DNA of 64,000 nucleotides from a virus (IMGVR_UViG_3300035670_000112:1-64000); one strand, 5' to 3'; counted from the stretch's first letter, positions 1 to 38,294 are shown. Notes: generated from the letters alone by a model not told the origin. Numbers and translations: made by a program.

Positions 1-2124
1 CCTGTCATAGTTGCCCACATTGGGGTCGTATGCTATCAGCTCCTTCACGAGTCCGTATGAACTCAATGTGGTATAATTCCTCTCTCCTTCCCCCTTCCCG
101 TACGCCTGCTCCATCAGGTACGATCTGATGAGACTGTTCCTCCAACCGTTCACGGCCTTCGTGGTATGGGTACCCTTCGCAGCATTCCCGTAACCGTTCC
201 TGCGGGTCATCTGCATGTCCTTGAGTATCCCTGGGGTATCAGCAAGCATATAGAGTGCATTTATACGGTCGAAGTACTGGAACATCCCCTTCTTGTTGTT
301 CTCGTAGTTGCACCTTGCATTGTAATACCGCATCAACCTGTAGCAGGTCTCATAGTACTCCTCAGCGGTACGTGGACGACCAGTGTACTCCGCAACTATC
401 CTGCCTGTCAGACGGTTCATTATGAATATGCTCCCCAATGAGGGACCTGTCGACATGTCATCGTCATACGGGTCGGCACCTGCTATGTAAAGACCTGACT
501 GCACACCGTCATTCGTCTTCAGAGGATGTTCGAATATCTCCACACACCCCTCAAGATCCCTCACGTCCATTATGGGGAACTGTCTTATCGGAGGAACGTC
601 ACTGAGCTGCCACTCTATCTTCCCATCCCTTGTGAACAGCTTCACCTTCCATGATATGGCATCATACCTCTTCGGATTGGTCTCCATCTCTGAGAGATGT
701 ATCTTCAGGTCCTCCACATTGAACAGATGGCCCTCCCTTCTCATCATCGCCTCCTGAGGAGTGATCGATCGGTCCGCCTTCTCCTGTACGAGTGCATTCG
801 GATCGTTCGTATTGGACGATACCACCTTCCTCTCGGTGAACACCTGTACAAGTGCCTCTATGACATCGGAGTTGCCATCACTGTCGTAACAGCCCTCACG
901 GTTCATGTACTCCCCACAGTAATAACCGCACAGTGTCCCTACGGGGGAGTTGCGGTCGAACACGTTCCTGATACCGTATATCCTGTATGCACTGGGATTC
1001 GAGAACAGTTCCCTCATACCCTCGAAATCCGCACCTTCGGTACCTCCAGTACCCCACGTGACTATCGTTCCGAAAGTACTGTTGCCCTGCTCCACAGAAG
1101 GTCTTGCGATCGCATACGCCTTCTTCAGATGAGGGAATTTACCAGCCTCCTCGAAGAGCAGCAGCTTTCCGCGCTTTCCCCTCGCCTTCTCAGGTTCACC
1201 CTTGGTGGTCACCCCTATTATCTCGCTCCGCATACCCTTCTCAGTGCGTGTACGCGGATCCCTGTAGGATGCCTTCTTGTGCATCTTGGTGTCCGCATAG
1301 TCCCTTGATTTCCTCCATGGGGTGTGATTGTCCACGAAGTTCAGTACGTCCCATGCCTTGTTGAGGATACCGTCACCCATGAGGTAATCTCCCTCGGATG
1401 CTATGGCGAACGACTTGCTGTTCTTGAAATGATAATAGTTCCTCGATCCCATGCTGCCCCCCTTGAAGGAGTATCCCCTACCCCTCGTCTTGAGACACAC
1501 CGCATGGCTGCCTCTCATCTCAGCCTGTTCGACATAATGGAACCACAGATAGTCGCTGTCCCATACACGTGGGAAATCCTCTATACGGTCAGCCTTGACA
1601 GACCGTGTGACCTGCTGCTCCACCTCATATGTGTCAGCGGATGAGAACCCCTCCACCATCGGCATCAGTCCGTCAACGGTCCTGTTCTCAGTCAGAAGTA
1701 TGGGACAGTAGTTCAGATACCAATAGTAATAACCTGGTATCCACTCACCGTCAGAAGGCCTTACAAGTCCCTCCCTGCATCTTCTCTGCTCCTCCTTCCA
1801 GAACTGCATGTACCTCGATGAGGGATGTCTGTTCGGTATCATATCACAGTATACCCCGTTCCTCTTGAAATAAAGTGCCCTCTCCCTGAAGAAATCCATG
1901 TCTTCAAGAAGATGCGGTTCAGTGATGTTCACAATGATCCTCCCATTGACATCCCTTCTGAGATCGCATGCCCTTCTCCTTCCTCTCTTCACCAGATTGA
2001 ATATGAAGGGTATCTCGGATATCGCACCGATCACATCGGCACGTACATCCTCATCCTCTATCATGTTGACCCTCATACTGTGATCGAACATGATGCTATC
2101 AAGAATACCCTTCTCCTGCTCCAT
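1..2124 (-). CDS. terL: Terminase large subunit, crAss-like (3' end lies beyond the left edge of the window)
   Basis: Not in the ORF track because it has no stop in the window. Hand translation of the 5' part from ATG 2124: MEQEKGILDS...FWKEEQRRCREGLVRPSDGEWIPGYYYWYLNYCPI...LKTRGRGYSFKGG (Walker A-like), typical of crAss-like terminases. The start overlaps the upstream TGA. Confidence 0.88.
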   Translation of the reverse strand, partial: MEQEKGILDSIMFDHSMRVNMIEDEDVRADVIGAISEIPFIFNLVKRGRRRACDLRRDVNGRIIVNITEPHLLEDMDFFRERALYFKRNGVYCDMIPNRHPSSRYMQFWKEEQRRCREGLVRPSDGEWIPGYYYWYLNYCPILLTENRTVDGLMPMVEGFSSADTYEVEQQVTRSVKADRIEDFPRVWDSDYLWFHYVEQAEMRGSHAVCLKTRGRGYSFKGGSMGSRNYYHFKNSKSFAIASEGDYLMGDGILNKAWDVLNFVDNHTPWRKSRDYADTKMHKKASYRDPRTRTEKGMRSEIIGVTTKGEPEKARGKRGKLLLFEEAGKFPHLKKAYAIARPSVEQGNSTFGTIVTWGTGGTEGADFEGMRELFSNPSAYRIYGIRNVFDRNSPVGTLCGYYCGEYMNREGCYDSDGNSDVIEALVQVFTERKVVSSNTNDPNALVQEKADRSITPQEAMMRREGHLFNVEDLKIHLSEMETNPKRYDAISWKVKLFTRDGKIEWQLSDVPPIRQFPIMDVRDLEGCVEIFEHPLKTNDGVQSGLYIAGADPYDDDMSTGPSLGSIFIMNRLTGRIVAEYTGRPRTAEEYYETCYRLMRYYNARCNYENNKKGMFQYFDRINALYMLADTPGILKDMQMTRRNGYGNAAKGTHTTKAVNGWRNSLIRSYLMEQAYGKGEGERNYTTLSSYGLVKELIAYDPNVGNYDR

Positions 2125-2684
2125 CAGTCTGGATTCATATCCTCATCCTCGAATTCAGCCTTCTCCCTTCCTCCTCTCAGAGCAAGACTCTCAGCTATCT
2201 CGAACTCCACGAGCCTCTGTGTCTCCTGAAGGCTCTTGATGGTTGTCGGAAGCCTGTTCAACATCTCCTGCACCTTCTTGGCATCATGCACCACTGCTCC
2301 CTTGTCATTCCGTTCATTGAGATCCACTGTCAATAGGAAATTGTCCAACTTCCTCTGTGCCTCCCATGCACTGTCAAGACTGTCCATCGAACGTGTACGG
2401 CTCAACTCCTTATACTTTCTCAGGCACTTCTCAGTGATACCGTCAGGCTCCCACCCTCTGATATCACCCATCAGGTCATTCCTCACCTGAGACTCCCTCT
2501 CGCCATCTGACAGCCTTATATAGGGCGACCTCATATCGACCATGAAGAATATGTAGGACAGCTCTGCGAACAGAGCATCCTTCCTCTTACGTGCAGCAAC
2601 AAGCTGTTTGAACTCATCCACCAACAGTACCTGTGGTGCGATGACCAGCCTGCCGTCATCATCCATCTCAAAAAGATGCTTCAT
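2124..2684 (-). CDS. Conserved protein upstream of terL, putative terminase small subunit
   Basis: 186-aa helical ORF translationally coupled to terL (TGATG overlap); function inferred from position only. Confidence 0.55.
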   Translation of the reverse strand: MKHLFEMDDDGRLVIAPQVLLVDEFKQLVAARKRKDALFAELSYIFFMVDMRSPYIRLSDGERESQVRNDLMGDIRGWEPDGITEKCLRKYKELSRTRSMDSLDSAWEAQRKLDNFLLTVDLNERNDKGAVVHDAKKVQEMLNRLPTTIKSLQETQRLVEFEIAESLALRGGREKAEFEDEDMNPD

Positions 2685-3121
2685 TCCTGCACTATACGAT
2701 TGCCGTCACTGTCGAACTCGTGCTCGTAGCCCTCACTCACCTTCGCCTTCAGTGCCTTCATCTTCCCGAATCTCACATAGTCCGTAAGGTCCCTTACGAT
2801 CGAAGTGTCCGATCCTACGATATCATCAAGGTCAGGCTGCTCATCAAAGAGCACTGCAATGTCATACTCCTGTATCAGATGGTACATCTCACCATCATGT
2901 ATCACTGCCGCTGGTGTGCAGTTCGTGTTCAACAGTCCCCACTGTCCCACCTTCGCATGCTTCACGTCTGGACCTACTGCCATCAGTTCGACACAGGGCA
3001 CCACATCACGCTTACGCTTGATGTCCACTATCACACCTCCCTTTGTCGTCTCAGGCTTCAGATACGCCTTCGTGATCACTTTCGACCCCATCGGGGTCAC
3101 TCCCTTCAATCTCTCCTTCAT
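2681..3121 (-). CDS. groES: GroES/Cpn10-like co-chaperonin
   Basis: TPMGSKVI...ETTKGGVIV...MAVGPDVKHAKVG...LIQEYDI follows the Cpn10 pattern (P-x-G-x-x-V, TKGG mobile loop, AVGP, VG). Confidence 0.75.
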   Translation of the reverse strand: MKERLKGVTPMGSKVITKAYLKPETTKGGVIVDIKRKRDVVPCVELMAVGPDVKHAKVGQWGLLNTNCTPAAVIHDGEMYHLIQEYDIAVLFDEQPDLDDIVGSDTSIVRDLTDYVRFGKMKALKAKVSEGYEHEFDSDGNRIVQE

Positions 3122-3407
3122 TCCGTCTCATGTACTGTGCAATGAATGCCTCCATCGCCTCTCTGTTATCAACCGTATTCACAAGCCCTTTGCTCATACC
3201 CTTGAAAGGGTACGGATCCCATGACAGTCTACCTTTCTTGAATCTCTTCAACAGTCGGTCCGCCATACTCCTTCTGAGCCTGTACTCCTCGAAGGTCTCC
3301 CCTTCATCCGCGAGTCTTGCCGACACGCTACTGACGAACAGTCGCACCCCGTCCTTCTCAAAGTACGGTATGCCACTGTCTGTCATCCTATGCTCCCCAT
3401 CTGTCAT
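3051..3407 (-). CDS. Hypothetical protein
   Basis: Open frame in the minus-strand gene run; start uncertain (track start 3464). Confidence 0.5.
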   Translation of the reverse strand: MTDGEHRMTDSGIPYFEKDGVRLFVSSVSARLADEGETFEEYRLRRSMADRLLKRFKKGRLSWDPYPFKGMSKGLVNTVDNREAMEAFIAQYMRRNEGEIEGSDPDGVESDHEGVSEA

Positions 3408-3606
3408 TGCTCTCCCCGATATCATCATTACTGAACGGTCCCTTGAAAGGGATGACCACATCATCCTCCTTCATTCCCTTTCTCTGACCGTCCTTCTTAT
3501 CCTTTATGAACTTCCGTATGGCAGCAGCACCCTCGATGACATCATCAAGCTCACCGTTCCTGTACACGTTCAATATGAACTGTTCATTCCTCATCATCTC
3601 TTCCAT
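3388..3606 (-). CDS. Hypothetical protein
   Basis: 72-aa ORF overlapping its neighbours in a tightly packed operon. Confidence 0.55.
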   Translation of the reverse strand: MEEMMRNEQFILNVYRNGELDDVIEGAAAIRKFIKDKKDGQRKGMKEDDVVIPFKGPFSNDDIGESNDRWGA

Positions 3607-3827
3607 TTTGATCCTCCTTTGCTCTCAGGGTTCGGACAGTCCGACAGTGAACTCCTCGTCTTTGCAGCAAGTGGACATCCGCACTGTCCGCAGATCAGAA
3701 CACCCATGGCATTCCTCATATCACTGCATGTGATGCATATCTCCGCCCTTCTCAGAGCCTCCTTCTCATTCACAGGGTCCTTCATGACATATCTTGTCCA
3801 CCCCTCAACTATCGCCCTTACATCCAT
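3594..3827 (-). CDS. Small Cys-rich zinc-binding protein
   Basis: RRAEICITC...ICGQCGCPLAAKTRSSLSDCP; a CxxC/CxxCGC pattern seen in crAss-like phage small proteins. Confidence 0.7.
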   Translation of the reverse strand: MDVRAIVEGWTRYVMKDPVNEKEALRRAEICITCSDMRNAMGVLICGQCGCPLAAKTRSSLSDCPNPESKGGSKWKR

Positions 3828-4053
3828 CCTTCCTACTGTTCATGTACAGCATCTCTGCGAATCTCGGTACGAACTTCCCGAGACCTCTCATATATACCAC
3901 CTTGAAGGTTCCCACATCGTTCCTATCAGATTCCGACATCACCTTCTTAAGCACCTGGAACTGATTCTTCCAGGCCTTCTCAAGCACATAGGACGGTATA
4001 CCGTACCTGGATGCTATCTCATCTATGAGCTCAGACCTCCGATCCGACCTCAT
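3805..4053 (-). CDS. HU/IHF-like DNA-binding protein
   Basis: ELIDEIASRYGI...VVYMRGLGKF resembles the HU/IHF helix plus V-x-L-x-G-x-G-x-F arm. Confidence 0.6.
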   Translation of the reverse strand: MRSDRRSELIDEIASRYGIPSYVLEKAWKNQFQVLKKVMSESDRNDVGTFKVVYMRGLGKFVPRFAEMLYMNSRKDGCKGDS

Positions 4054-4429
4054 CCTTCACCTTGAAACTGAACACTATCGCATTCATCTTCCCTGGATAC
4101 AGCCTCAATGCCCTGTGCAGATAATTGTCTGCATCCATCAGTCTGTGTCTCCTGAGAGCAGTGAGACAGTTCGCAAAACCAGCATCACTCATCTTCAACG
4201 CTTCCGCCATCTCCCTCTTACTCTCATAGGAGAACAAGGCTCTCCACTTCTTGGGATCCTCAGGGTCCCTGTAATCCTTGGCAAGCAGGCTGTTCCTGTA
4301 CATCACCTCGGCAAGTACCTGACGTTCCTGTCTTCTCAACCTGTCTATCGGGGACTGAACGGTCATAAGCTCCACATACATCGTAAAGAACGATCTCTCA
4401 GTACCCTTCAACTCATATCTCCTCTCCAT
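4031..4429 (-). CDS. Putative winged-helix DNA-binding protein
   Basis: LRRQERQVLAE...KREMAEALKMSDAGFANCLTALRRHRLM is HTH-like. Start moved to ATG 4429 because a promoter occupies 4447-4478. Confidence 0.6.
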   Translation of the reverse strand: MERRYELKGTERSFFTMYVELMTVQSPIDRLRRQERQVLAEVMYRNSLLAKDYRDPEDPKKWRALFSYESKREMAEALKMSDAGFANCLTALRRHRLMDADNYLHRALRLYPGKMNAIVFSFKVKDEVGSEV

Positions 4430-4446
4430 CCGCTCTGCTCTCCCTG

Positions 4447-4478
4447 CAAATATACGAACCAATAACACACTCTGTCAA
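4447..4478 (-). promoter_or_regulatory. Promoter TTGACA-N18-TATATTTG
   Basis: Minus strand TTGACA (4478-4473), 18 nt, TATATTTG (4454-4447), matching the Bacteroidota -7 TAnnTTTG. Same arrangement at 5018-5048 and 63163-63193. Confidence 0.7.
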
Positions 4479-4504
4479 TCAATCTCACAGAAAATATTAA
4501 AAAC

Positions 4505-4798
4505 TCATATGAATCTCTCATCGTCCTCCCCTACGACATCATCCTGACGGTCCCTATCACCATAATATACATCCATACATCTCTCATGGAACTGCTCCCC
4601 TATGGCAGTCTCCACATCTACATCCTTCCCCTCCTCTATCGGATAGTACCCTGTAAGCTCCACCGATACGAACTCATCTTCCGTATTGAGCACATGTGTG
4701 AACAGTAACACCTTCACAACCCTCACACCGTCAACAACGGACTCACTCCTCTCGAACTTAATCTCAGGATACTGGTATGCCACGCCTTCCTCTCCCAT
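4505..4798 (-). CDS. Hypothetical acidic protein
   Basis: ORF 4505..4834 in the track; the likely start is MGEEGVAYQ at about 4798. Confidence 0.55.
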   Translation of the reverse strand: MGEEGVAYQYPEIKFERSESVVDGVRVVKVLLFTHVLNTEDEFVSVELTGYYPIEEGKDVDVETAIGEQFHERCMDVYYGDRDRQDDVVGEDDERFI

Positions 4799-4832
4799 TT
4801 TTTTTGCGTTTTGAACTTCACCTCGTAAAAAC

Positions 4833-5017
4833 ACTCGCTTCTGCGAGTCAAAAACTCAGACCTTGTACCTACATCGGAGTTTGTTGAGTATATCAATATC
4901 TACCCGATCCAACAGGAGTGGTCACCTGAAGTTCCAACTGAGACCTGTATACCGTCCCTTTGATCAGCCTTACGGGGCTACGCAGTCTCAGAAACTGCAT
5001 TCTCAATAGGAACGGTA
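4833..5017 (-). ncRNA. Candidate structured RNA / leader downstream of promoter
   Basis: Nested stems on the minus strand: ACCGTTCC/GGGACGGT enclosing GCAGT/ACTGC and AGCC/GGCT, then ATCGGG/CTCCGAT and CTCGC-AGAA-GCGAG. Confidence 0.4.
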
Positions 5018-5048
5018 CAAATATACAACACGAAAACCCGTATGTCAA
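5018..5048 (-). promoter_or_regulatory. Promoter TTGACA-N17-TATATTTG
   Basis: Minus strand TTGACA (5048-5043), 17 nt, TATATTTG (5025-5018); heads the leftward operon. Confidence 0.72.
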
Positions 5049-5191
5049 GTGTCGGGCAAAAAAAAATCAAAAAAAAATTTTTTTCATATAGGCGGGTGGT
5101 TACCACCGTGACATAAAGCCCCTACTCGAGTAAGGCATCTGGAAAGTCCCCCCAGGTGTCCGAACGTAAACGGGGACATATACCTAATATC

Positions 5192-5467
5192 ATGGAAAAC
5201 ACACTGGAATTCATTGACCGCCTCAGCATGTCTGAAGCAAAGAAAGTCCTTGGGGTCGACAGCATCGCTCTCAAGAAGAACCCTCACACTGGAAAGCTGT
5301 TCGCAGTCAATTCCGTTGGCAAGCAGATCGAGGGTCTCGTTGTCTCCACCAAATTCAACGTTGACGCAGAGGACGTTTGCATCAGCGAGGTCGAGGGTAC
5401 CAACGGTCGCTTCTACCTGCTTCACGAGCAGAAGGAGGGAAGATTGCCTGCCTTGAGAACCTTCTAA
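5192..5467 (+). CDS. Hypothetical protein, first rightward gene
   Basis: MENTLEFIDRLS...; followed by terminator-like hairpins. Confidence 0.6.
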   Translation: MENTLEFIDRLSMSEAKKVLGVDSIALKKNPHTGKLFAVNSVGKQIEGLVVSTKFNVDAEDVCISEVEGTNGRFYLLHEQKEGRLPALRTF

Positions 5468-5496
5468 GGTTCCTCAGGGGGGCAACCCCCTTTGTT
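5452..5496 (+). terminator. Hairpins / intrinsic terminator after ORF 5467
   Basis: GAACCTTCTAAGGTTC, then GGGGG-CAA-CCCCTTTGTT. Confidence 0.5.
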
Positions 5497-6014
5497 CCCG
5501 TCTTTCCTTGTGTACGACACATGTACGATGTGTACTACACTGATAGACAGGCAGTTGAGGATACGCAGGTGTGCTTTATATGTATGTTTGACGTGCATAA
5601 AAACCCACACCCTGCGTATACCTCATCTTTACATCACCAGTATACACACCTCATGTATACTTTAATATATGGACCTTTCCACACACACCAAGTGAACAGG
5701 TGTACCGTTGTTCACACCACAATATGTCTCCGACCATGAGAACATTTGTCATCATCAACGGGGTTGTCACCCTTGTTGAGTACATCATCAACGCTAACGC
5801 ATAGTTAGTGTACAGTATTTTGGTCGGTCGCACTCCTCTTCGGAGGGTGTGACCTTCTTTAAATCCTCTGAACCAATGAAGAGGTGAAGGCATTCACATT
5901 GTCTTCAAGATCTTATGGGAAGAGATGAGTAAGTGATAGACTCTCTTCCCTATGTTAATGCACCATTCTCACGTGGATATGAAGACTTCTGAGAGACAAC
6001 CAGCTCAAGAGAGA

Positions 6015-6207
6015 CTGCACTCAACTCAGATGTGAAACCACCTGATTAATAAAGTGAACTCTATGTGGTAAGCAGAGTTTAATGCAGCCTTGGTCTAATT
6101 GCCAAAATGCAGCTTATTAGTAGGACGCTGAAACATGCACAATAACTATTAATTGGAAGGGAATACTTAAATAGCATCAGAAACAGAGCTATTACAACTG
6201 AGTGCAG
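6015..6207 (+). ncRNA. Candidate multi-stem structured RNA
   Basis: Perfect 9-bp closing stem CTGCACTCA (6015-6023)/TGAGTGCAG (6199-6207), with internal stems TCAG/CTGA, AACTCT/AGAGTT and ATAGC/GCTAT; no ORF. Confidence 0.4.
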
Positions 6208-6279
6208 AGGGATTATCGGATTGAAGGTTAAGCAATAGACCTATGAACTTATTGCATCATTCATAATATCAATAGTACA

Positions 6280-6504
6280 ATGAGATACTACATCTTTGAT
6301 TTTCTGTTCATCTGTTCAATGCCACTTGTGCTTCTTGTATCGGTATGGACATTCTGTCTGTTCCAATTCGATATACTGTGGGTGACATCATCATCCCCGT
6401 ACATCATGATACAGGCACTTTTCACATTGTTCGCACCTTTCGTAATGTTCTCAGCTTCCTGCCCTGAACATACGATCATTTACAGGGCTCTTCACGATAA
6501 ATAG
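6280..6504 (+). CDS. Small membrane protein
   Basis: 74-aa ORF with two hydrophobic segments. Confidence 0.5.
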   Translation: MRYYIFDFLFICSMPLVLLVSVWTFCLFQFDILWVTSSSPYIMIQALFTLFAPFVMFSASCPEHTIIYRALHDK

Positions 6505-6954
6505 GATCGTTCCCTATTGACCACATCTGGAGAGCAGTGCTGCATGTGCACACCATGCATCATATATTTCAATGTGTGCCGTCACCACTGACGGAAGTAG
6601 ACCATTCAGCAATACTGCAAGAGGAACGGGCTTGCATATGAACCCGATGACATCATAAGTGAGGTCATCAGGGCTATATCCATAGGGGAGTGGTACCCTA
6701 TGGATGAATTTTTTTTTACCAGTAATCACGTGATCACTAACCTTTTAATACATTTGTAATGTGGAGATTTCATCAGACGATCCAGATCATCCCTACAATA
6801 TCTATTGTAGTGGAGGAGAGTACACCTTATATCATCGTGTTCTTTCCTATTTTCGGAGCATTGGAATATCGGTTCTTGTAAGCATCGCACTCATACAGCA
6901 CATCATCAATATCATGATGTTGCTGTATTGGCATGTGGTATAATGCCCTTCTTC

Positions 6955-6985
6955 ACATCCCAGGTCCTAAAAAGACCTGGGATGT
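6955..6985. repeat. Perfect 12-bp inverted repeat (hairpin)
   Basis: ACATCCCAGGTC-CTAAAAA-GACCTGGGATGT. Confidence 0.8.
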
Positions 6986-7741
6986 TTCCAATCAAGTGGC
7001 AACACATTGGTTGAAAGAGTAAAGCAACAAGTTGTACAGATAGTAACAATCAGATGCTGCAGCATCCAACCACACAGGAGAGTGTAAACTATAATGATAT
7101 GTACAAAGAAAGAAAGACAATTTGTTGAAATTCACCTGAGAACAATAGACGGTCATCCACTAAAGGTGTGTCCCTGAAGTTGACGATCTTCTTCAAACCC
7201 CTGATGATAGTTCTAGCCAAAGAGCGTTGTCTGTTGTTCTGTGTGGAGCAACTGTGGCACTAACGGGTAGTTAGGTCAAGAATGTACCGTTCGATTCGGT
7301 TGTTGTGATGAAGCATCCAGAGATGGCAATCTGGCAGGTGATAATTTATTGAGAGAGTTACAACAGGTGAAGGTTGTATTTACAGAGTAAGAGTCCTGAC
7401 AGCGATGCTTAGGATGCTATCAGCAATAAATGCCTTTGTAATGAAGGAGTTGAATAGTTGACATGCTGCTCTGATCTCTCATCTTATTGTTCCCGTCCAA
7501 TTGCAGGCTTGGTTAGTTCCCAAGAGACTGTCAATGCTTAATAGTTGCAGGACACAGCATTCAAGGTGCAACCTTGCGGGAACATATTCTATTGAGAGAG
7601 TGGACACACACGTGTATCAGCTAATGACCATAATGACCACATTAAGAGAATGTGGGTGGAAGACACGAAGCTCTCTCATCTTATTGAAACCGTTCTGATT
7701 CATTACAGACATTGGAGTGGACAGAATGGTTTCTTTTTTAC

Positions 7742-7884
7742 AGTCAGGTGGCGGAATGGCAGACGCAGAAGTTAGAAGAGAGAGATTATCAATGTTGGTT
7801 AGTGGATTGATTACCTTATCTAATGGATTAAATAACTTACACCAACTATTATAGGTTATACAGGTTCGAATCCTGTCCTGATTA
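7742..7884 (+). ncRNA. tRNA-like element (Leu-type D arm and T arm) with a ~93-nt insert replacing the anticodon/variable arms
   Basis: Acceptor stem AGTCAGG/CCTGATT, then TGGCGGAATGGCAGACGC (D arm) and T arm ACAGG-TTCGAAT-CCTGT; no normal anticodon arm and no encoded CCA. Confidence 0.65.
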
Positions 7885-7973
7885 CAGTGAGGTTGCAGAA
7901 AGGTAAGACGTGGCACATTCGGCCACGGATCGTTATGGATCAATTGAGCAGAAGTAAAGTTTAAAACCCATTT

Positions 7974-8183
7974 GTGATGAGATCAGAAGAAGAAATTAAG
8001 GCTCGATTACTTGAGCTGTTTTTAGCCCGTGAAAAATTTGAACGCTTAACTACGGAAGCAGATAATGGATGCCCTAACAAAAAGATGTTATGGTTGGCCA
8101 AACAAACTGGCGTTGGTGTTTATAGCGGTCAAATTGACCTACTTAAATGGGTTTTAAACGATTCTGCGCCCGAAGGCAATTGA
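7974..8183 (+). CDS. Cassette 1 hypothetical protein
   Basis: 69-aa ORF whose stop abuts attC-like site 1. Confidence 0.65.
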   Translation: MMRSEEEIKARLLELFLAREKFERLTTEADNGCPNKKMLWLAKQTGVGVYSGQIDLLKWVLNDSAPEGN

Positions 8184-8266
8184 TCCCAACGGTTGGCGGC
8201 TTTGTGTCAGGCTGCGAAGCGTTGGCATTGAGCGGTCGGGCAGCTTGCACAAAACCGCTGTTATAG
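8184..8266 (+). repeat. attC-like site 1
   Basis: TCCCAAC-G-GTTG-GCGGCTTTGTGTCAGGCTGC ... GCAGCTTGCACAAAACCGC-T-GTTATAG. Confidence 0.75.
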
Positions 8267-8302
8267 CCAGTAGCGGTTTATTAACGATAAAAACTAATTA
8301 AA

Positions 8303-8500
8303 ATGGGAGGGTTAGCAAGAATTTGTAAAATGTATGGCTCAATGGAAGTGAGTGATGCAAATGGTAAAAAAGTAACTTGGCTTTGGGATTATGTAAATGA
8401 CAAACCAAGACTAAAAACAGAAATGACCAAAGAAGAAATAATGGCAAGTGAAAAAGCCAAGTGGATGGCTGTGAAATCTCAATTAGATGCAGAAAAGTAG
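8303..8500 (+). CDS. Cassette 2 hypothetical protein
   Basis: 65-aa ORF with an AT-rich leader; stop just before site 2. Confidence 0.7.
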   Translation: MGGLARICKMYGSMEVSDANGKKVTWLWDYVNDKPRLKTEMTKEEIMASEKAKWMAVKSQLDAEK

Positions 8501-8506
8501 CATTGC

Positions 8507-8637
8507 GCACAACGGTCGGGCATAAGAGAAGTGCCGAAATTAGAAGTACAAATTATGAATTTAAAACGAAAGTAAATATGAAACACAGAACATCAATTTT
8601 AGTAGGAACTCGGCATTTCTTTTATGCCTTGTTAGCG
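8507..8637 (+). repeat. attC-like site 2
   Basis: GCACAAC-GGTC-GGGCATAAGAGAAGTGCCGA ... TCGGCATTTCTTTTATGCCT-T-GTTAGCG. Confidence 0.8.
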
Positions 8638-8886
8638 GTTGTTATTTTATCAGGTTGCGGAAAATCGGTCAATGAAAAAAACTTTGATATAAGTATGCAA
8701 AAAATAAATGGCGAATGGATACGTGCAACATATTCGCTACCAGAAGACGCATATTTTTTCATTGACACTCACAGAGGTAGTTATTCATTACGATACGATA
8801 GAAGTGGTGCTAATTGGTTCACAAAATCAAGAAGTGGAATTACTGTTAGAAACGGAATTATTGATTATCGGATTAATAACCGCTAA
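8578..8886 (+). CDS. Cassette 3 putative lipoprotein
   Basis: MKHRTSILVGTRHFFYALLAVVILSGC has a lipobox (LSGC). The ATG lies in the loop of site 2 and the TAA lies inside CGCTAAC of site 3. Confidence 0.65.
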   Translation: MKHRTSILVGTRHFFYALLAVVILSGCGKSVNEKNFDISMQKINGEWIRATYSLPEDAYFFIDTHRGSYSLRYDRSGANWFTKSRSGITVRNGIIDYRINNR

Positions 8887-9013
8887 CGTGTCGGTGCTAT
8901 ACGATGTGGCGGATTTTCAGCACGAAAGTCCAATACGAAGCACCACAGTTGAATTAAGTAAAAATGTTTAACCGAAGCACGTCAGCCGCCATATTGTATA
9001 GCACATGTTAGCG
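8881..9013 (+). repeat. attC-like site 3
   Basis: CGCTAAC-GTGTCG-GTGCTATACGATGTGGCGG ... CCGCCATATTGTATAGCAC-AT-GTTAGCG. Confidence 0.82.
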
Positions 9014-9039
9014 GTTCGGGCTTCACAAATCAAAATAAA

Positions 9040-9270
9040 ATGACAATAGAATTTAACTTTTACAAAAGCTGGTATGCAGGATTTCGCTTCAAAGATTTGT
9101 TGCCAATATTCAGCTTCACCAAAAATGTTCAGGGCTGGTCATACACTCGTGTATGGTCATTGAATTGGTTTACTTGTGCAGTTTCGTTTCGCCTAATAAA
9201 AAGAAGCGATTTGAACGAAGATAGAAGCGTTTCTCATGAGAAGCATGTCAAACGATATATGGTGTCATAG
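9040..9270 (+). CDS. Cassette 4 hypothetical protein
   Basis: 76-aa aromatic-rich ORF between sites 3 and 4. Confidence 0.65.
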   Translation: MTIEFNFYKSWYAGFRFKDLLPIFSFTKNVQGWSYTRVWSLNWFTCAVSFRLIKRSDLNEDRSVSHEKHVKRYMVS

Positions 9271-9276
9271 CCTGAC

Positions 9277-9406
9277 CGGTAACGTAAAATGTATGAGCAG
9301 TAGCCGATTTCAAAGCACTGACTTATCTTTACGCTAAAATATTAATTAGAAGCAATAGCTTAAATAAGCCCACTGACACGGCTATTGCTTATAAATAGTG
9401 TTATGT
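9277..9406 (+). repeat. attC-like site 4
   Basis: CGGTAAC-GTAAA-ATGTATGAGCAGTAGCCG ... CGGCTATTGCTTATAAAT-AGT-GTTATGT. Confidence 0.78.
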
Positions 9407-9418
9407 GGCGTTATTATT

Positions 9419-9640
9419 ATGAAAATACATTGGATGAATAAAAAGTTGTATATAACAACAGCAAAACCCATTAAAGAAAATGACTTGTATTTAGACGATT
9501 TGGTACACCCAAGTTTAATACAGTATCCATTAGTAATGTGGGGTTTTGCGGATGGAGATAAACGAAAGGTAATACAAAGCCATAGTGGAACAACAAGCCC
9601 CGTAAGTTGTAGTAGAAGAATATTGTTAGTGATTGGCTAA
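9419..9640 (+). CDS. Cassette 5 hypothetical protein
   Basis: MKIHWMNKKLYIT...; stop just before site 5. Confidence 0.6.
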   Translation: MKIHWMNKKLYITTAKPIKENDLYLDDLVHPSLIQYPLVMWGFADGDKRKVIQSHSGTTSPVSCSRRILLVIG

Positions 9641-9644
9641 TGCC

Positions 9645-9778
9645 ACATAACGTGCCGCAGCTTGACGCTGTTGGCGATTTAAACTACTAAACTTTAATTA
9701 AAAAACAAATACTTAATATGAGTACAAAAGATAAATTGAAAAACGAAGCCGCCAATAGCGTTCAAGGTGCTGTTAGCA
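9645..9778 (+). repeat. attC-like site 5
   Basis: ACATAAC-G-TGCC-GCAGCTTGACGCTGTTGGCG ... CGCCAATAGCGTTCAAGGTGC-T-GTTAGCA. Confidence 0.8.
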
Positions 9779-10137
9779 GCAGTGCTTTGCGTTACAATGG
9801 AGGTAAATTGCGTTGGTCGCTTGTTGACTTTGATGCCTTAGAAGATATGGTTAAAGTGCTTGAATTTGGGGCTAAAAAGTATGCAGACAATAACTGGAAG
9901 AAAGGGCTTAAAACACCCGAAATATTTGAAAGTATGATGCGTCACATGACAGCATACATAAGGGGTGAAGATATAGACCCTGAAAGTGGATTACCACACA
10001 CAGGGCATATACTTTGCAATGCAATGTTCTTATCATATATGCAGCGTTTTAAGCCCGATTTTGATACAAGGCACAAAGACAAAAACAAGCGATGCTGTGG
10101 TAATTGGGATGAAAATGGTGTGTGTACGTGTCCGTAG
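9718..10137 (+). CDS. Cassette 6 dATP/dGTP diphosphohydrolase-like protein (DUF5664 family)
   Basis: RYNGGKLRWSLV...VLEFGAKKYADNNWKKG...MRH...GEDIDPESGLPHTGHILCNAMFL matches the family signature. Confidence 0.8.
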   Translation: MSTKDKLKNEAANSVQGAVSSSALRYNGGKLRWSLVDFDALEDMVKVLEFGAKKYADNNWKKGLKTPEIFESMMRHMTAYIRGEDIDPESGLPHTGHILCNAMFLSYMQRFKPDFDTRHKDKNKRCCGNWDENGVCTCP

Positions 10138-10143
10138 CATTGC

Positions 10144-10271
10144 TGCTAACGGTCGAGTGTATGAACCGTTGCGTGATTGAAACAATAAACTTAAAAATAC
10201 AGATATGTTTAATAGAAAAAAGAAACTTGGCAGACGCACTATAAAGCAATGGTTTATACACATTGTTAGGC
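10144..10271 (+). repeat. attC-like site 6
   Basis: TGCTAAC-GGTCGA-GTGTATGAACCGTTGC ... GCAATGGTTTATACAC-ATT-GTTAGGC. Confidence 0.8.
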
Positions 10272-10441
10272 GTTTGTTGCGGAAAGAATACTGCAAGGTT
10301 TGTGGACAAGAACTGACTGAAATTAGAGGTCGATACCCTAAAGAACCAAGAAGGAAAGTATGTGCTTGTTGTGCTACTGAAAAACTTGAATGGATAAATG
10401 AACAGAATAATGTTGAGGCGAAATGTAGCAATAACGCCTAA
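10205..10441 (+). CDS. Cassette 7 zinc-ribbon protein
   Basis: CKVC...CACC. The start is in the loop of site 6 and the stop is in GCCTAAC of site 7. Confidence 0.65.
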   Translation: MFNRKKKLGRRTIKQWFIHIVRRLLRKEYCKVCGQELTEIRGRYPKEPRRKVCACCATEKLEWINEQNNVEAKCSNNA

Positions 10442-10567
10442 CGTATCGGTGCTTGGCGAAGGCTGGGCATTAATAGTACAAAACTTTAAATTTAAAACAA
10501 ATGATTGTAGATAGCACAAACGTTGATTTAGCACAGAAGCCCAGCTTTTGCCAAACACCTGTTATAA
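10436..10567 (+). repeat. attC-like site 7
   Basis: GCCTAAC-G-TATC-GGTGCTTGGCGAAGGCTGGGC ... GCCCAGCTTTTGCCAAACACC-T-GTTATAA. Confidence 0.82.
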
Positions 10568-10815
10568 GCCGTTTTTCTATTCCTGAAACATTGGAATTGA
10601 TTAAGGAGCAAACAGGTTTAAAGTTGGAATTATGCGACTATTTCACAGGCATAAAAGAACATAACGAAAGAAAGTATTTCAATGTGATTTTGCCACAAAG
10701 AACGAGCGAATCAAAAGAGTATGGCATCTTAAAAAGGTTTGCTGATAAATACAAATTAATTTCAGTTGATCCAAATGGATTGAAGCGAGTGGCTGTCTTT
10801 CAAAATGGCTTATAA
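10501..10815 (+). CDS. Cassette 8 hypothetical protein
   Basis: 104-aa ORF starting in the loop of site 7; stop inside TTATAAC of the terminal half site. Confidence 0.65.
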   Translation: MIVDSTNVDLAQKPSFCQTPVISRFSIPETLELIKEQTGLKLELCDYFTGIKEHNERKYFNVILPQRTSESKEYGILKRFADKYKLISVDPNGLKRVAVFQNGL

Positions 10816-10816
10816 C
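10802..10816 (+). repeat. Terminal half site (left arm only)
   Basis: AAAATGGCTTATAAC complements GTTATAAGCCGTTTT at 10561, but no inner stem follows. Confidence 0.65.
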
Positions 10817-10846
10817 ATCTGATATGTACATAAAGACTAAAGCAAA

Positions 10847-11071
10847 ATGCATTCAATATCAACTACTTACGATTTAAAGTGGCGACATAAAGAAGCTAAC
10901 GAATACCAGTTTGATTCTGATGGCATCTGCATAAACACCAAGAGAGGCAGAATAGTCAGACAGGTATTGAACGGACGTTCCAAAGGATTCTGCATACGCG
11001 GAAAGTTCGTGTCATTGACTTCGCTAAGACCGAAACTGGAGAAGATACCCAACATTGAATGTCCCTTCTGA
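10847..11071 (+). CDS. Hypothetical basic protein
   Basis: 74-aa ORF at the start of a run of overlapping small genes. Confidence 0.6.
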   Translation: MHSISTTYDLKWRHKEANEYQFDSDGICINTKRGRIVRQVLNGRSKGFCIRGKFVSLTSLRPKLEKIPNIECPF

Positions 11072-11258
11072 TGAGATACGCCTACGCCTACGTTCTGACC
11101 TGTGTCGTTTATCCGCTTTGGATAATTGCAACATGGCAAGAACCTAAGAAAGAACAACCTAAGTACGAACCCGAATACATTTGTGATTGCGGGGCGCGTG
11201 ACTTGAAGAGATGGAACGACCCTGAGAAACTAACTATTAACACTATAAACGGAACGTT

Positions 11259-11576
11259 ATGACACTAACAGGGGAAGCAAAAGAGCAGTTTGAACACTAC
11301 TTAGCTGGTGTTTTTAAACGTGGTTATTCATCATGGAGTAGGCATACTGATTTTTACTCGCTGCCCGAAGCAATGCAATGGGGAATGTATCAGGACTTCG
11401 CTGATTCGGTCGGGATTGACATGAACACAGACGCGTCTTTGGAACAAGACTCATATTGGTATCTTTTTTACATGAAAGACCAAAAGTTCAACAACTTAGA
11501 TGATATCTGTTTCAAGACCCGCCAAGAAGCCCGCGAAGCAGCCATTAAGAAACTTGATGAAATACTGAACAAATGA
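11259..11576 (+). CDS. Hypothetical protein
   Basis: 105 aa; ATGA overlaps with neighbours. Confidence 0.7.
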   Translation: MTLTGEAKEQFEHYLAGVFKRGYSSWSRHTDFYSLPEAMQWGMYQDFADSVGIDMNTDASLEQDSYWYLFYMKDQKFNNLDDICFKTRQEAREAAIKKLDEILNK

Positions 11577-11938
11577 GAAAGACTCTACACAAATACCTGA
11601 AAAGCCAATACGAGGGTTTTTATGACGGTTCAGGCCTATTCGACATTGATTCAGCGTTTACAGAATGCTACAAATACGCTGAACTGACTAACAGAAAGCC
11701 GAAGTTTGAGGACTTCATCGGAGAGAATGCAATATTCAAAGGTGAGTGGGAAATTTTTTACCAAGAAGACGAGTTCATTCAACTGAGGTGTAATGGCGTG
11801 TCTTGGGACGTAATAATACGAAATGATGACGCAGTAAGCGTGATTCGCTGGAAAACCAAAACGAAATATGATGAGGTTAAGGTCAGCCAAATAGAAGAAC
11901 TCCCCCGCGAGATTGAATTTAAAGAAAACGCGATATGA
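11573..11938 (+). CDS. Hypothetical protein
   Basis: 121 aa; ATGA coupled. Confidence 0.7.
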   Translation: MRKTLHKYLKSQYEGFYDGSGLFDIDSAFTECYKYAELTNRKPKFEDFIGENAIFKGEWEIFYQEDEFIQLRCNGVSWDVIIRNDDAVSVIRWKTKTKYDEVKVSQIEELPREIEFKENAI

Positions 11939-12144
11939 AAAAGACACTAGCACTACTACTATTATTATTTCTTGCAATAACTGGTTGTGAAACCGTACCA
12001 AAAAGACCTTACATCATAACGGGAAAGTATTGTAGTAATTCCGAATGCTCTATCTGTGATTTTTACTATACATCAAGAGATCAACAACGAATTCGTTTTA
12101 ACGAGCCTTGTATCAATTACACCATTGGAGACACGATAAAATGA
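11935..12144 (+). CDS. Putative lipoprotein
   Basis: MKKTLALLLLLFLAITGC signal peptide with lipobox. Confidence 0.7.
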   Translation: MKKTLALLLLLFLAITGCETVPKRPYIITGKYCSNSECSICDFYYTSRDQQRIRFNEPCINYTIGDTIK

Positions 12145-29861: not shown

Positions 29862-30477
29862 CCTTGGGCATTTCATAATTGAGGAAAGGAAGAGATACAG
29901 GGTATTCCCTGCTCAGAAGGATGTGTTCAATGCATTCAGATCCACACCTTTCCATGATGTGAAGGTGGTATTCCTGGGGCTTGATCCTTACATACGTGAG
30001 GGTCAGGCCACAGGGTACTCATTCGGTGTCGACATCGATACTGCGATCACAGTACCTCCATCATTGAGGAACATCATCAGAGAAGTGGAGAGTGACCTTG
30101 ATGTCCTGTGTCTTGAGTTCGACCATTCATTGAAAGGTTGGGCACAGCAGGGGGTACTGCTGTTGAATACCGCACTCACGGTCAGAGAGGGACAGACAGG
30201 TTCACATCTTCTCCAATGGAGCGGATTCACTCAGAGTGTACTGAAGGCATTGAACGATAAAGGGGACAATGTGATCTTCATACTGTTGGGAAAGGATGCC
30301 CAGTCGTATGCAAAGTATCTTGACCCGTCAGTGACGAAGGTGATAATGGCACCCCATCCTGCAGCGGAATCGTATGCAGGGGGGAAAGCAGGATTCTTCG
30401 GTAGCAGGATATTCAGTAAGTGCAACAGCATGCTGTACATGCTCGGAAAAGAAGAGATAAATTGGAATATAAAATAA
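29773..30477 (+). CDS. ung: Uracil-DNA glycosylase, family 1
   Basis: DVFNAF, VKVVFLGLDPY, VPPSLRNI, WAQQGVLLLNTALTV, HP...GFFG...FSKCN. Confidence 0.9.
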   Translation: MSRELVLRSIVGEQWFKALYGHMMSKEFDDLGHFIIEERKRYRVFPAQKDVFNAFRSTPFHDVKVVFLGLDPYIREGQATGYSFGVDIDTAITVPPSLRNIIREVESDLDVLCLEFDHSLKGWAQQGVLLLNTALTVREGQTGSHLLQWSGFTQSVLKALNDKGDNVIFILLGKDAQSYAKYLDPSVTKVIMAPHPAAESYAGGKAGFFGSRIFSKCNSMLYMLGKEEINWNIK

Positions 30478-37568: not shown

Positions 37569-37666
37569 TGGTAACGTTTTGCAGCTAACATAAGTGGCTG
37601 CTTGTAAGAACTTCTGAATTAAAAACAAATGCTTGTAGCAGCCATTTTTGTTAGGTGCTGTTATAA
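37569..37666 (+). repeat. attC-like site 9 (second locus)
   Basis: TGGTAAC-G-TTTT-GCAGCTAACATAAGTGGCTGCT ... AGCAGCCATTTTTGTTAGGTGC-T-GTTATAA. Confidence 0.8.
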
Positions 37667-37684
37667 GTTGTAAAAATTACGGTA

Positions 37685-37876
37685 ATGGAAAACGAAACAA
37701 AAAAATTAACACAAAAAGAATTAGAAGCAAGAGCATTAATTGCAGGTGATTTGCTACGAGAAGGTGAAGTAACAAGAGTTGAAACGTTCAGAGTTGAAAT
37801 TGATGCTGCTCTTGGTGAAAATACTGGCGATTTGAAGTTTGAAAAGAACACAGACTTTGAAGATGGTACGATGTAG
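37685..37876 (+). CDS. Cassette protein (second locus)
   Basis: 63-aa ORF between sites 9 and 10. Confidence 0.65.
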   Translation: MENETKKLTQKELEARALIAGDLLREGEVTRVETFRVEIDAALGENTGDLKFEKNTDFEDGTM

Positions 37877-37889
37877 TAATTTTTATTGC

Positions 37890-37940
37890 TTATAACGATT
37901 TGCTAAACAACGTTTCAATGTTGTTTAGGTACTGTTAAAC
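37890..37940 (+). repeat. Short attC-like site 10
   Basis: TTATAAC-GATTTG-CTAAACAAC ... GTTGTTTAG-GTACT-GTTAAAC. Confidence 0.65.
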
Positions 37941-37947
37941 CGATAAA

Positions 37948-38184
37948 ATGAACGACATGGAAAAGATTTTAATAGCACTAAAGGTTATTCAAGTTGTTTC
38001 AAATATTGATAGAAAAAAGAACGGACTTGAGTATTTGGGTAGAGGGTTTTCTAAAGCATACAGACTAAATCCATTTAACCCGTTAAGTTACATAATTGTA
38101 ATTGTGGCGATACCTATGACGATAATTCTCTATGGATTTATAGGTTTTTTCAAGCAGGTAACAAATCCATTTGAATGGGACTGA
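37948..38184 (+). CDS. Small membrane protein
   Basis: RLNPFNPLSY followed by a transmembrane segment. Confidence 0.65.
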   Translation: MNDMEKILIALKVIQVVSNIDRKKNGLEYLGRGFSKAYRLNPFNPLSYIIVIVAIPMTIILYGFIGFFKQVTNPFEWD

Positions 38185-38294
38185 ATTAATTAAGATGAAC
38201 GACATCACTAAGCACCTGCTGAAAGAATACCTACCGATTGTAATTGCCTTTATCTTGGGAGTGATAATGGGTTTATATCTCTGATGCATTATTT

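Follow-up and report, generated by a model that had tools for sequence, protein, structure and literature searches.

A probable integron-like array of gene cassettes in a crAss-like phage, with related hairpin sites in bacteria of one phylum

Background

Integrons, above all the sedentary chromosomal ones and their 'inverted integrase' group, are arrays of promoter-less cassettes separated by attC sites, which are hairpins conserved in structure with AAC and GTT cores. The attC site is cleaved at AA|C on its folded bottom strand. The DNA examined here, a stretch of 64,000 nucleotides (nt) that we call the window, is the first 64 kb of the linear 87,417-bp IMG/VR contig IMGVR_UViG_3300035670_000112, a phage genome that CheckV rates as 86% complete. 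Between 7932 and 10816 it holds eight small open reading frames (ORFs) and a series of long imperfect hairpins, which an earlier reading of the sequence alone (the original prediction) took for an integron-like cassette array inside a crAss-like phage. We argue that the block probably consists of eight mobile cassettes, with a second locus of two sites at 37.6 kb, and that it belongs to an integron-like system common in one phylum, apparently Bacteroidota.

Clusters of attC sites lacking integrases (CALINs) are already known from phages. Qi et al. (2023, PMC9892861) report 17 of them, including one in the virulent flavobacterial Polaribacter phage P12002L, and its site P12002L_attC1 was the sole one of six without a verified IntI1 junction (PMC9892861). 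This cluster resembles the present one in having integrase-less, attC-like sites between small genes and methyltransferase genes. It differs in how it was understood: PMC9892861 treats the sites as classical attC, tests them with IntI1 and draws no link to a widespread bacterial site class, a non-IntI recombinase or crAss-like phages. Here we have nine sites at two loci of one phage. The P12002L CALIN apart, we found no description of this site class or its recombinase in the papers searched.

Two other systems are worth considering. T4-type phages have promoter-early stem-loop (PeSL) modules, directly repeated elements that contain a conserved promoter and are shuffled through homologous recombination. 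They also place small accessory ORFs of a plastic phage region between repeated stem-loops that mediate modular shuffling. Unlike them, the sites described below vary in sequence, have conserved cores and cassette-specific inverted boxes, and have bacterial counterparts beside a recombinase. Xer recombinases can work on folded single strands, as XerCD does on attP of the CTX phage. The recombinase found here in bacteria is nearest to XerA, XerC and XerD profiles, and its substrate is probably a folded single strand. However, the sites are not of the dif type; they form arrays into which insertion appears to be cassette by cassette. The crAss-like phages belong to the most abundant groups of Bacteroidota phages, and to our knowledge their acquisition of accessory genes is poorly understood.

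Architecture and covariation of the sites

The eight ORFs are co-oriented (7974-10815), encode 65-139 amino acids (aa) and are separated by seven imperfect hairpins of 83-134 nt, with a terminal TAAC half site. Everything that the original prediction had listed in the block is there: the ORFs, the hairpins at 8184, 8507, 8881, 9277, 9645, 10144 and 10436, the half site ...GGCTTATAAC at 10802-10816, and stop codons that fall in the AAC box or 2-11 nt ahead of it. The seven sites also have the layout it gave, which reads (Y)TAAC, G, a bulge of 3-5 nt, a stem of 16-21 bp, an AT-rich loop, the stem partner, T and GTTA. We call the box with AAC R'' and the box with GTT R'. AAC and GTT are invariant in the seven full sites, and the whole 7-mers RYYYAAC and GTTRRRY fit in some only (GCCTAAC, GTTAGGC). 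In these cores, and in promoter-less cassettes set apart by imperfect hairpins whose structure is kept better than their sequence, the arrays are like integrons. A simple scanner for AAC, stem and GTT returns five array sites and one at 37573 on the + strand and 0 matches on the - strand; on shuffled genomes it gives 0-3.

The stems covary. RNAalifold finds 24 pairs in the eight sites (the seven and one of the second locus), with compensatory changes in 15. A larger alignment combines sites of this phage with those of two other phages and of four bacterial loci, 37 in all. Its cells pair in 95.9% of cases; shuffling lowers this to 67.5% and sliding the partner to 36-49%. The compensatory cells number 211 against 62 in shuffles. 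The original prediction had made covarying stems a test of itself, and compensatory pairs occur in both alignments. It had also said that the sites share architecture but not sequence, which is too strong. Mean column identity is 58% and the sites are not conserved as direct repeats, but TAAC-G, T-GTTA, a U-A pair and two of the G.T pairs vary little or not at all. The first G.T pair joins the G after AAC to the T before GTT (36/37 sites) and the second lies about 14 pairs into the stem (36/36). By eye the geometry is that of one 3-5-nt bulge beside the R box. The single bulge and the two fixed G.T pairs appear to set these sites apart from attC, which has a spacer and extrahelical bases.

The expectation that the bottom strand folds did not hold up. 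With DNA parameters the ORF-sense (+) strand is more stable than the - strand in 9/9 sites. Counts of G.T against A.C pairs outside the two invariant positions gave no decision on the strand. No Rfam family for the hairpins was found.

Cassette ends

As in integrons, the cassette ends are complementary. Each ORF is bracketed by inverted boxes of 10-14 nt, GTTAxxxx...xxxxTAAC, which pair across the ORF and not across the hairpin. For each pair of boxes, the 13 bases that follow GTT were reverse-complemented and matched against the 13 lying outside AAC. Boxes of the same ORF match at 11, 10, 11 and 11 of 13 positions for cassettes 3, 5, 6 and 8 and at 7-8 for cassettes 4 and 7, whereas the two boxes of one hairpin agree at 3-8 of 13 only. 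The matches sum to 65 against a permutation mean of 41.5, and 5/40320 permutations reach 65. The same relation was seen by eye in two other phage arrays (L009 and L010). The sixth cassette, which encodes a diphosphohydrolase, can be compared between loci. Its boxes are GTTAGCAGC with GCTGCTAAC in the window and in locus L106, GTTAGTGGC with GCCACTAAC in L009 and the bacterial locus L089, and GTTATCGGAAG with TTCCGATAAC in L090. R' and R'' boxes covary within one cassette family.

Distribution of the sites

A covariance model was built from eight sites of this phage. On its own 87-kb genome it returns nine sites (the eight and a short one, sB) and nothing else, all on the + strand and at two loci. 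The viral search set was 80 loci encoding a relative of the diphosphohydrolase. Site arrays are present in 2/80 (L009 and L010); the other 78 have no site within 10 kb, and five phage genomes of ~100 kb with a homologue have no site. In phages without the sites the diphosphohydrolase is an ordinary phage gene. L009 lies in genome G001 (68.8 kb, CheckV 100% complete) and has seven sites detected by the model and one seen by eye; L010, in G002, has four. Neither genome has a match to the terminase of the present phage (G000), so these are unrelated phages. The model also matches the intergenic regions around the methyltransferase genes of P12002L at 42.7-18.6 bits. P12002L_attC1 falls inside the match at 30002-30062, and its short architecture is the same as that of sB.

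The same sites are common in bacteria of one phylum. L089 is on a contig of G003, a metagenome-assembled genome (MAG) titled 'uncultured Bacteroides sp.', and is an array of them. Its cassettes encode an OLD-type nuclease, RloB with an AAA_21 ATPase, VWA with NOV_C, a protein with a type IX secretion system (T9SS) tail, and a diphosphohydrolase unit. The carriage of defence genes by bacterial arrays (the OLD-type nuclease, RloB with AAA_21, and a reverse transcriptase-like ORF) is another likeness to integrons. Across the phylum of G003, apparently Bacteroidota, the model has matches in 71/151 sampled genomes (47%) at E <= 1e-4, many of them in arrays. A control phylum, that of a 'Bacillota' MAG, gave a single weak match in 1/121 genomes. 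The model trained on the phage alone scores bacterial arrays at 50-110 bits, and one covariance model for a site of about 138 nt, with short forms of 51-100 nt, fits phage and bacterial arrays alike.

Two observations on particular arrays may be added. In L089 (G003:C31) the defence-type genes of 1597-10561 are reverse-oriented (AAA_15 with OLD-TOPRIM, RloB with AAA_21, VWA with NOV_C, HATPase), and the diphosphohydrolase unit is of the phage type, its hairpin and ORF being 88% identical to phage L009. In L009 a 162-aa ORF at 8290-8778 is in cassette position and by eye resembles an AP2/HNH-type homing endonuclease. The GTTA box of the site beside it is not clean, which may mean that a homing gene has inserted itself into the array.

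Assembled contigs of four sequencing runs, which cannot show circles or rare joints, were compared with 7600-11200. One subsurface run, possibly the source sample itself, has the region whole in a single contig with zero differences. Pieces of the array are also present at 91-100% identity in a lake-water run of a different study: the hairpin of the second site (s2, 8513-8628) at 100% as a separate contig of 116 nt, cassette 3 with 3 differences, and 9413-9653 (cassette 5) with 21 differences inside a longer contig that extends on both sides. Contig breaks at sites in run X4 and depth differences were not taken as evidence.

Breakpoints

We recorded where pairwise homology of the diphosphohydrolase cassette starts and stops relative to GTT. 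The window and L106 are 97.7% identical from -7 to +378, which is the C of AAC, and only there. Seven pairs were compared. Six of them have homology up to the cassette end, where it stops within 3 nt; in none of the seven does it continue for over 3 nt beyond AAC, and in none does it take in the hairpin downstream. L009 and L089 have the hairpin ahead of the cassette in common as well (homology from -123), as do L107 and L108 (from -113), and two further comparisons include part of it (-44, -24). L106-L110 have the cassette in last place, with a full hairpin upstream of it and unrelated sequence after TAAC, just as at the window's 10816 end. The claim of a modular array is borne out, since this cassette turns up behind other hairpins, in other phages and in a bacterial array, with homology breaking exactly at GTTA and TAAC. 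The proposed breakpoint at G|TT is only half right. A break at GTTA does occur (the window against L106, L089 and L009; a second-locus site, sA, against L009), but the hard break is TAAC| on the 5' side of the hairpin. Judged from these sequence comparisons, the mobility of the cassettes is well supported.

Orientation and coding loops

Phage and bacterial cassettes differ in orientation. Counting the aa encoded on the strand opposite to the model and on the same strand, bacterial arrays give 2517/145, 3498/384, 2421/1137, 3304/0 and 3996/0. In L009 and two P12002L regions the ORFs follow the strand of the model, with 991, 945 and 232 aa on it and 0 on the other. In the window all eight cassette ORFs are on the + strand, although the automatic count is confounded by one antisense ORF of 169 aa. 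L089 has a single ORF on the strand of the model, and it is the diphosphohydrolase unit of phage type. Within the unit, then, phage cassettes have the inverse orientation; this is why their hairpin comes before the ORF and can contain its start.

This is what four of the sites do. In s2, s5, s6 and s7 the ATG of the next ORF is in the loop, after an A-rich stretch such as TTTAAAACAAA, and the 3' arm and GTTA box are coding sequence. In s5-s7 the ATG is 54-60 nt ahead of GTT, which is in frame as a codon. The Pfam domain of ORF6 begins directly past the box, and its close homologues (83-95% identical) start with unrelated leaders of ~20 aa, up to the V for which GTT codes. ORF8 has 102 homologue clusters, many with other N-termini up to VISRFS, and the 32 homologues of ORF3 vary upstream of LLAVVILSGC. 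In the AlphaFold2 (AF2) model of ORF8 residues 1-17 are disordered and the remainder has a per-residue confidence (pLDDT) of ~90. Since homologues have unrelated N-termini that end at the GTT codon, the first 18-20 residues are whatever the upstream hairpin encodes.

Loops can be longer elsewhere. Sites at L010 7460-7668 (-) and at L090 930-1131 and 1492-1694 have loops of ~150-190 nt; that of L010 holds an ATG and ~50 codons of the next ORF, so a leader can be long. At L009 10370-10545 the diphosphohydrolase cassette is fused in frame with the next one. The gene end and most of the hairpin are gone there and ...GTTAGGTGCTGTTATAAGCC is left; the fused cassette has the end boxes of window cassette 8 and a different interior.

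The recombinase

The original prediction saw no integrase in view, and the search of the whole 87-kb genome agrees. Tyrosine recombinases (PF00589), serine recombinases (PF00239) and HUH enzymes (PF01797) have zero matches in G000, G001 and G002. In bacteria there is a candidate. In the three arrays that were inspected (G128, G015 and G045) the TAAC side ends ~0-170 nt from the 3' end of a tyrosine recombinase gene, which is on the other strand with its 3' end toward the array. The three share the junction AAC|TYRTTTATAT. In G128, ...GCTGCCAAC|TTGTTTATATGCGCAAC is ~90 nt before the stop of a 355-aa recombinase, and menD follows. G015 has the same junction, CTTGCTGCCAAC|TCGTTTATAT, after a 353-aa recombinase; beyond it are three co-directional ORFs (529, 378 and 1107 aa) and then the first detected site. 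In G045, GGCTATAAC|TTAGTTATAT overlaps the stop of a 582-aa recombinase. A tyrosine recombinase gene at one array end beside a conserved junction is again like an integron.

The enzymes themselves are not IntI. They score 203-248 bits on NF040815 (XerA type) and 210-221 on TIGR02249, whose cut-off is 265. Compared with the true IntI of G015 (430 bits on TIGR02249) they are without its ~50-aa insertion and have an N-terminal extension of ~80 aa. The XerA-like score, the extension, the missing insertion and the 3' end toward the array all separate them from integron integrases. An alignment of these recombinases found only distant matches in IMG/VR (24-29% identity). The guess that non-canonical sites go with a distinct recombinase encoded elsewhere fits these results, with none in the phage and a Xer/IntI-like enzyme beside three bacterial arrays. 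Since such an enzyme is at the array end in the three bacterial arrays and absent here, the phage array is an orphan array of the system.

The bona fide IntI of G015 (G015:C5:61111-62052; L161 5106-6131) is on another contig than the array with the Xer-like enzyme, so two systems may coexist in that genome.

Proposed mechanism

The breakpoints and the position of the bacterial recombinase suggest that the mobile unit is hairpin + ORF + TAAC, with the main crossover at AAC on the 5' arm of the strand that folds better. We propose the following scenario. A site would fold when the + strand is single-stranded; provided that the GC skew mirrors replication, the parental + copy may serve as the lagging-strand template. 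A Xer/IntI-like recombinase from the host or a co-infecting element would cut at or next to AAC on the 5' arm, in analogy to the cleavage of attC, and the cut strand would be exchanged with another site or an attI-like target. New units would enter at the 3' end of the array (10816). The insertion end is likely this 3' half site rather than the head at 7932. A softer second breakpoint, T|GTTA, could swap hairpins between ORFs. The loop would supply an A-rich translation start, often an ATG and 18-20 codons, and with it a disposable N-terminal leader. In phages the ORF reads away from the hairpin, and the array could be read as part of the rightward phage operon.

Several points weigh against this account. 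Neither this phage nor G001, which is complete, has a recombinase of the three families, so action in trans is an assumption, and the adjacency of a recombinase is known from three bacterial arrays. The resemblance of the flank at 10817-10835 to AAC|TYRTTTATAT is weak and involves a few bases only. The end boxes of cassette 2 do not match (4/13). A break at GTTA as well as at TAAC is not predicted by the single crossover of integrons. The break at GTTA points to a further exchange site that works less regularly; its possible causes include use of the other strand and recombination between conserved hairpin ends such as AGGTGCTGTTA. The array has eight ORFs for seven hairpins and no site at its head, which leaves one end unexplained under either polarity. 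Finally, the enzyme, the strand and the chemistry are inferred, and the evidence is in assembled contigs, where recombination was not observed.

Alternative explanations

One can imagine that the block is an ordinary CALIN, with true attC sites recombined by the canonical IntI of the host. The phage has 7+1 and 2 sites and no integrase in 87 kb. The cores resemble R'' and R' (GCCTAAC...GTTAGGC at s7 and s6), the complementary ends are those of integrons, HattCI called P12002L_attC1, a site of the same class, an attC (PMC9892861), and G015 has both these arrays and a true IntI. However, the three recombinases at array edges lack the IntI insertion and stay below the TIGR02249 cut-off, and by eye one bulge beside the R box and a long uninterrupted stem are unlike attC. 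P12002L_attC1 is the one of six sites without an IntI1 junction in E. coli (PMC9892861). IntegronFinder 2.0 reports one complete integron in Bacteroidetes (PMC9024848), and the present sites are in 47% of the sampled genomes. Integrons also lack the second breakpoint at the other box, the inverted phage ORFs and the loop that encodes a start and leader. We consider an ordinary CALIN quite improbable.

Another scenario dispenses with a dedicated recombinase in phages and makes the hairpins PeSL-like junctions at which genes are shuffled by general recombination, short-homology recombination or template switching as the phage replicates. No recombinase was matched in the three phage contigs, of which one is complete, both hairpin borders serve as breakpoints, conserved ends of 7-11 nt such as AGGTGCTGTTA could act as microhomology, and the intermediate homology ends at -24 and -44 are inside hairpins. 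But terminal junctions of TAAC| with a non-homologous flank occur in five independent contexts, and general recombination does not require R' and R'' to covary within cassettes. The same sites in bacteria adjoin a dedicated recombinase with a conserved junction motif, and by eye the loops share no promoter motif. This scenario is unlikely. A role in RNA alone, such as processing, stability or translation control of a polycistronic mRNA with immobile genes, is very improbable. It is true that the sense strand folds better, with G.U pairs, that start codons in loops are at a fixed 54-60 nt from GTT, and that sites are co-oriented with transcription in all three phage arrays. Yet bacterial arrays have the same sites antisense to nearly all ORFs, and mobility is shown by the complementary ends, by the exactness of the breakpoints and by hairpins or cassettes that are identical between unrelated genomes. 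As the sole explanation RNA is largely refuted; a secondary role in phages is possible. IS200/IS605-derived palindrome-associated elements (PATEs) and REP/RAYT, the repetitive extragenic palindromes and their transposases, were rejected: PF01797 is absent in G000-G002, and these are single long hairpins between ORFs, not end hairpins.

Features of the two loci

The features of both loci are collected in Table 1. All are on the + strand.

Table 1. Parts of the main array and of the second locus, with positions in the window; bit scores are those of the covariance model.
Feature	Position	Strand	Description
Array head, R' box	7932-7946	+	GTTATGGATCAATTG, opens cassette 1; upstream only a 6-bp hairpin (7909-7927), no long hairpin
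Cassette 1 ORF	7974-8183	+	69 aa; no family match
Site s1	8184-8266	+	83 nt, GC-rich, type GGCTTTGTG.../...CACAAAACC; 51 bits
Cassette 2 ORF	8303-8500	+	65 aa; sole cassette with non-matching end boxes
Site s2	8507-8637	+	131 nt; 112 bits; ATG (8578) of ORF3 in loop
Cassette 3 ORF	8578-8886	+	102 aa; predicted lipoprotein (MKHRTSILVGTRHFFYALLAVVILSGC)
Site s3	8881-9013	+	133 nt; 116 bits
Cassette 4 ORF	9040-9270	+	76 aa; no family match
Site s4	9277-9406	+	130 nt; 103 bits
Cassette 5 ORF	9419-9640	+	73 aa; no family match
Site s5	9645-9778	+	134 nt; 119 bits; loop has ATG (9718) and 18 leader codons of ORF6
Cassette 6 ORF	9718-10137	+	139 aa; dATP/dGTP diphosphohydrolase (PF18909, domain from residue 22)
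Site s6	10144-10271	+	128 nt; 107 bits; loop has ATG (10205) and 20 leader codons of ORF7
Cassette 7 ORF	10205-10441	+	78 aa; CxxC...CxxC motifs
Site s7	10436-10567	+	132 nt; 109 bits; loop has ATG (10501) and 20 leader codons of ORF8
Cassette 8 ORF	10501-10815	+	104 aa; small alpha/beta domain
Terminal half site and flank	10802-10835	+	AAAATGGCTTATAAC, then ATCTGATATGTACATAAAG; candidate attI-like insertion end
Site sA	37569-37666	+	98 nt; 89 bits
Cassette A ORF	37685-37876	+	63 aa; bracketed by GTTATAAG...CTTATAAC
Site sB	37890-37940	+	minimal 51-nt form, 9-bp stem; 24 bits, E 0.01
ORF B	37948-38184	+	78 aa; predicted membrane protein, after R' box GTTAAACC

Reverse-complemented, the R' box at the head corresponds to CAATTGATCCCAAC, which ends cassette 1 (10/10 bases after one indel), and the site model finds nothing significant in 7700-8050. 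The 3' arm of s1 recurs ahead of the diphosphohydrolase cassette in L009 and L089. Cassette 2, given its mismatched ends, may be composite. The predicted signal peptide of cassette 3 spans the R' box. The R'' box CCGCTAAC and the R' box GTTAGCGG of s3 each partner the R' box of s2, and the R' box of s6, GTTAGGC, is the canonical core. The terminal half site matches the R' box of s7 at 11/13 positions, and the phage continues after its AAC as AAC|ATCTGATATGTACAT.

Pfam and PHROGs give no match for the array ORFs, ORF6 being the exception. For cassette 7 there are sub-threshold family matches only, one of them to a zinc-ribbon family (E 0.083). No function was found for ORF8 in a protein atlas, and Foldseek against the PDB gave no significant match.

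The second locus (37569-37940) carries sA and sB, of which sB was excluded from model training. sA is 96.8% identical to L009:8848-8941, in an unrelated phage, over TAAC...GTTATA only; the flanks differ. A matching TAAC end for ORF B was not found. The successive small ORFs after sB both start with ATGAACGACAT (MND...) at 37943-37960 and 38194-38210, a short direct repeat.

Genome context

The phage is crAss-like by its large terminase, which is 38-41% identical to those of cr111_1, Kolpuevirus, IAS virus, DAC15 and others. It encodes a family A DNA polymerase, for which no close relative was found in IMG/VR, and giant minus-strand ORFs of 1065-2558 aa. As had been claimed, the block is more AT-rich than the phage core, with a GC content of 0.37-0.39 against ~0.45-0.48 across most of the phage. 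Against 50,697 phage records, blastn of 7000-12000 gives short diphosphohydrolase matches only. We looked at the possibility of a chimeric assembly and reject it, as an independent contig of 6.1 kb (which may come from the source sample) covers 7600-11200 with zero differences and a second locus of the same sites is 27 kb away.

The array has an unusual neighbourhood. A stretch of ~3.2 kb at ~4470-7740 has no ORF longer than ~75 aa and coincides with the strand switch and with the point where cumulative GC skew is lowest. The array begins immediately to the right of this stretch, so the + strand there may be the lagging-strand template. At 7742-7884 (+), 48 nt upstream of the array, is a tRNA-like gene with a large insertion. 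It scores 32 bits on the Rfam tRNA model (gathering score 29) with the whole model covered, and ARAGORN calls no tRNA. Many contigs in all four runs share both of its ends, with a different middle of ~10-40 nt compared with ~90 nt here. Far from the array, ~1 kb at 43001-44000 has a GC content of 0.26 against ~0.45 around it. This segment is in frame inside a giant virion-type protein, the 1805-aa ORF at 38879-44296 (-).

Conclusions

We put forward, with confidence evenly divided, a broader scenario in which the phages and hosts of this phylum share one cassette pool run by a non-IntI, Xer-like recombinase. Phage cassettes would be inverted so that the hairpin becomes a start and a swappable leader, and units would move between phages and bacterial defence arrays. 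This is suggested by the diphosphohydrolase unit of phage L009, which in a bacterial MAG has OLD-type and RloB-type defence cassettes as neighbours. The results also point to a large integron-like system that escapes the standard definition of integrons because this requires the IntI insertion and the canonical attC model. If the scenario is true, it would explain why surveys of integrons come up nearly empty in this phylum and would provide a direct route by which phage and host exchange defence and counter-defence genes.

The array itself would be a site-specific route by which a crAss-like phage gains genes cassette by cassette, and as such a testable mechanism of phage-host gene flow. A start codon and leader encoded by the hairpin would be an unusual means of making any captured ORF expressible. 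The same sites organise arrays of defence genes in bacteria of the phylum.

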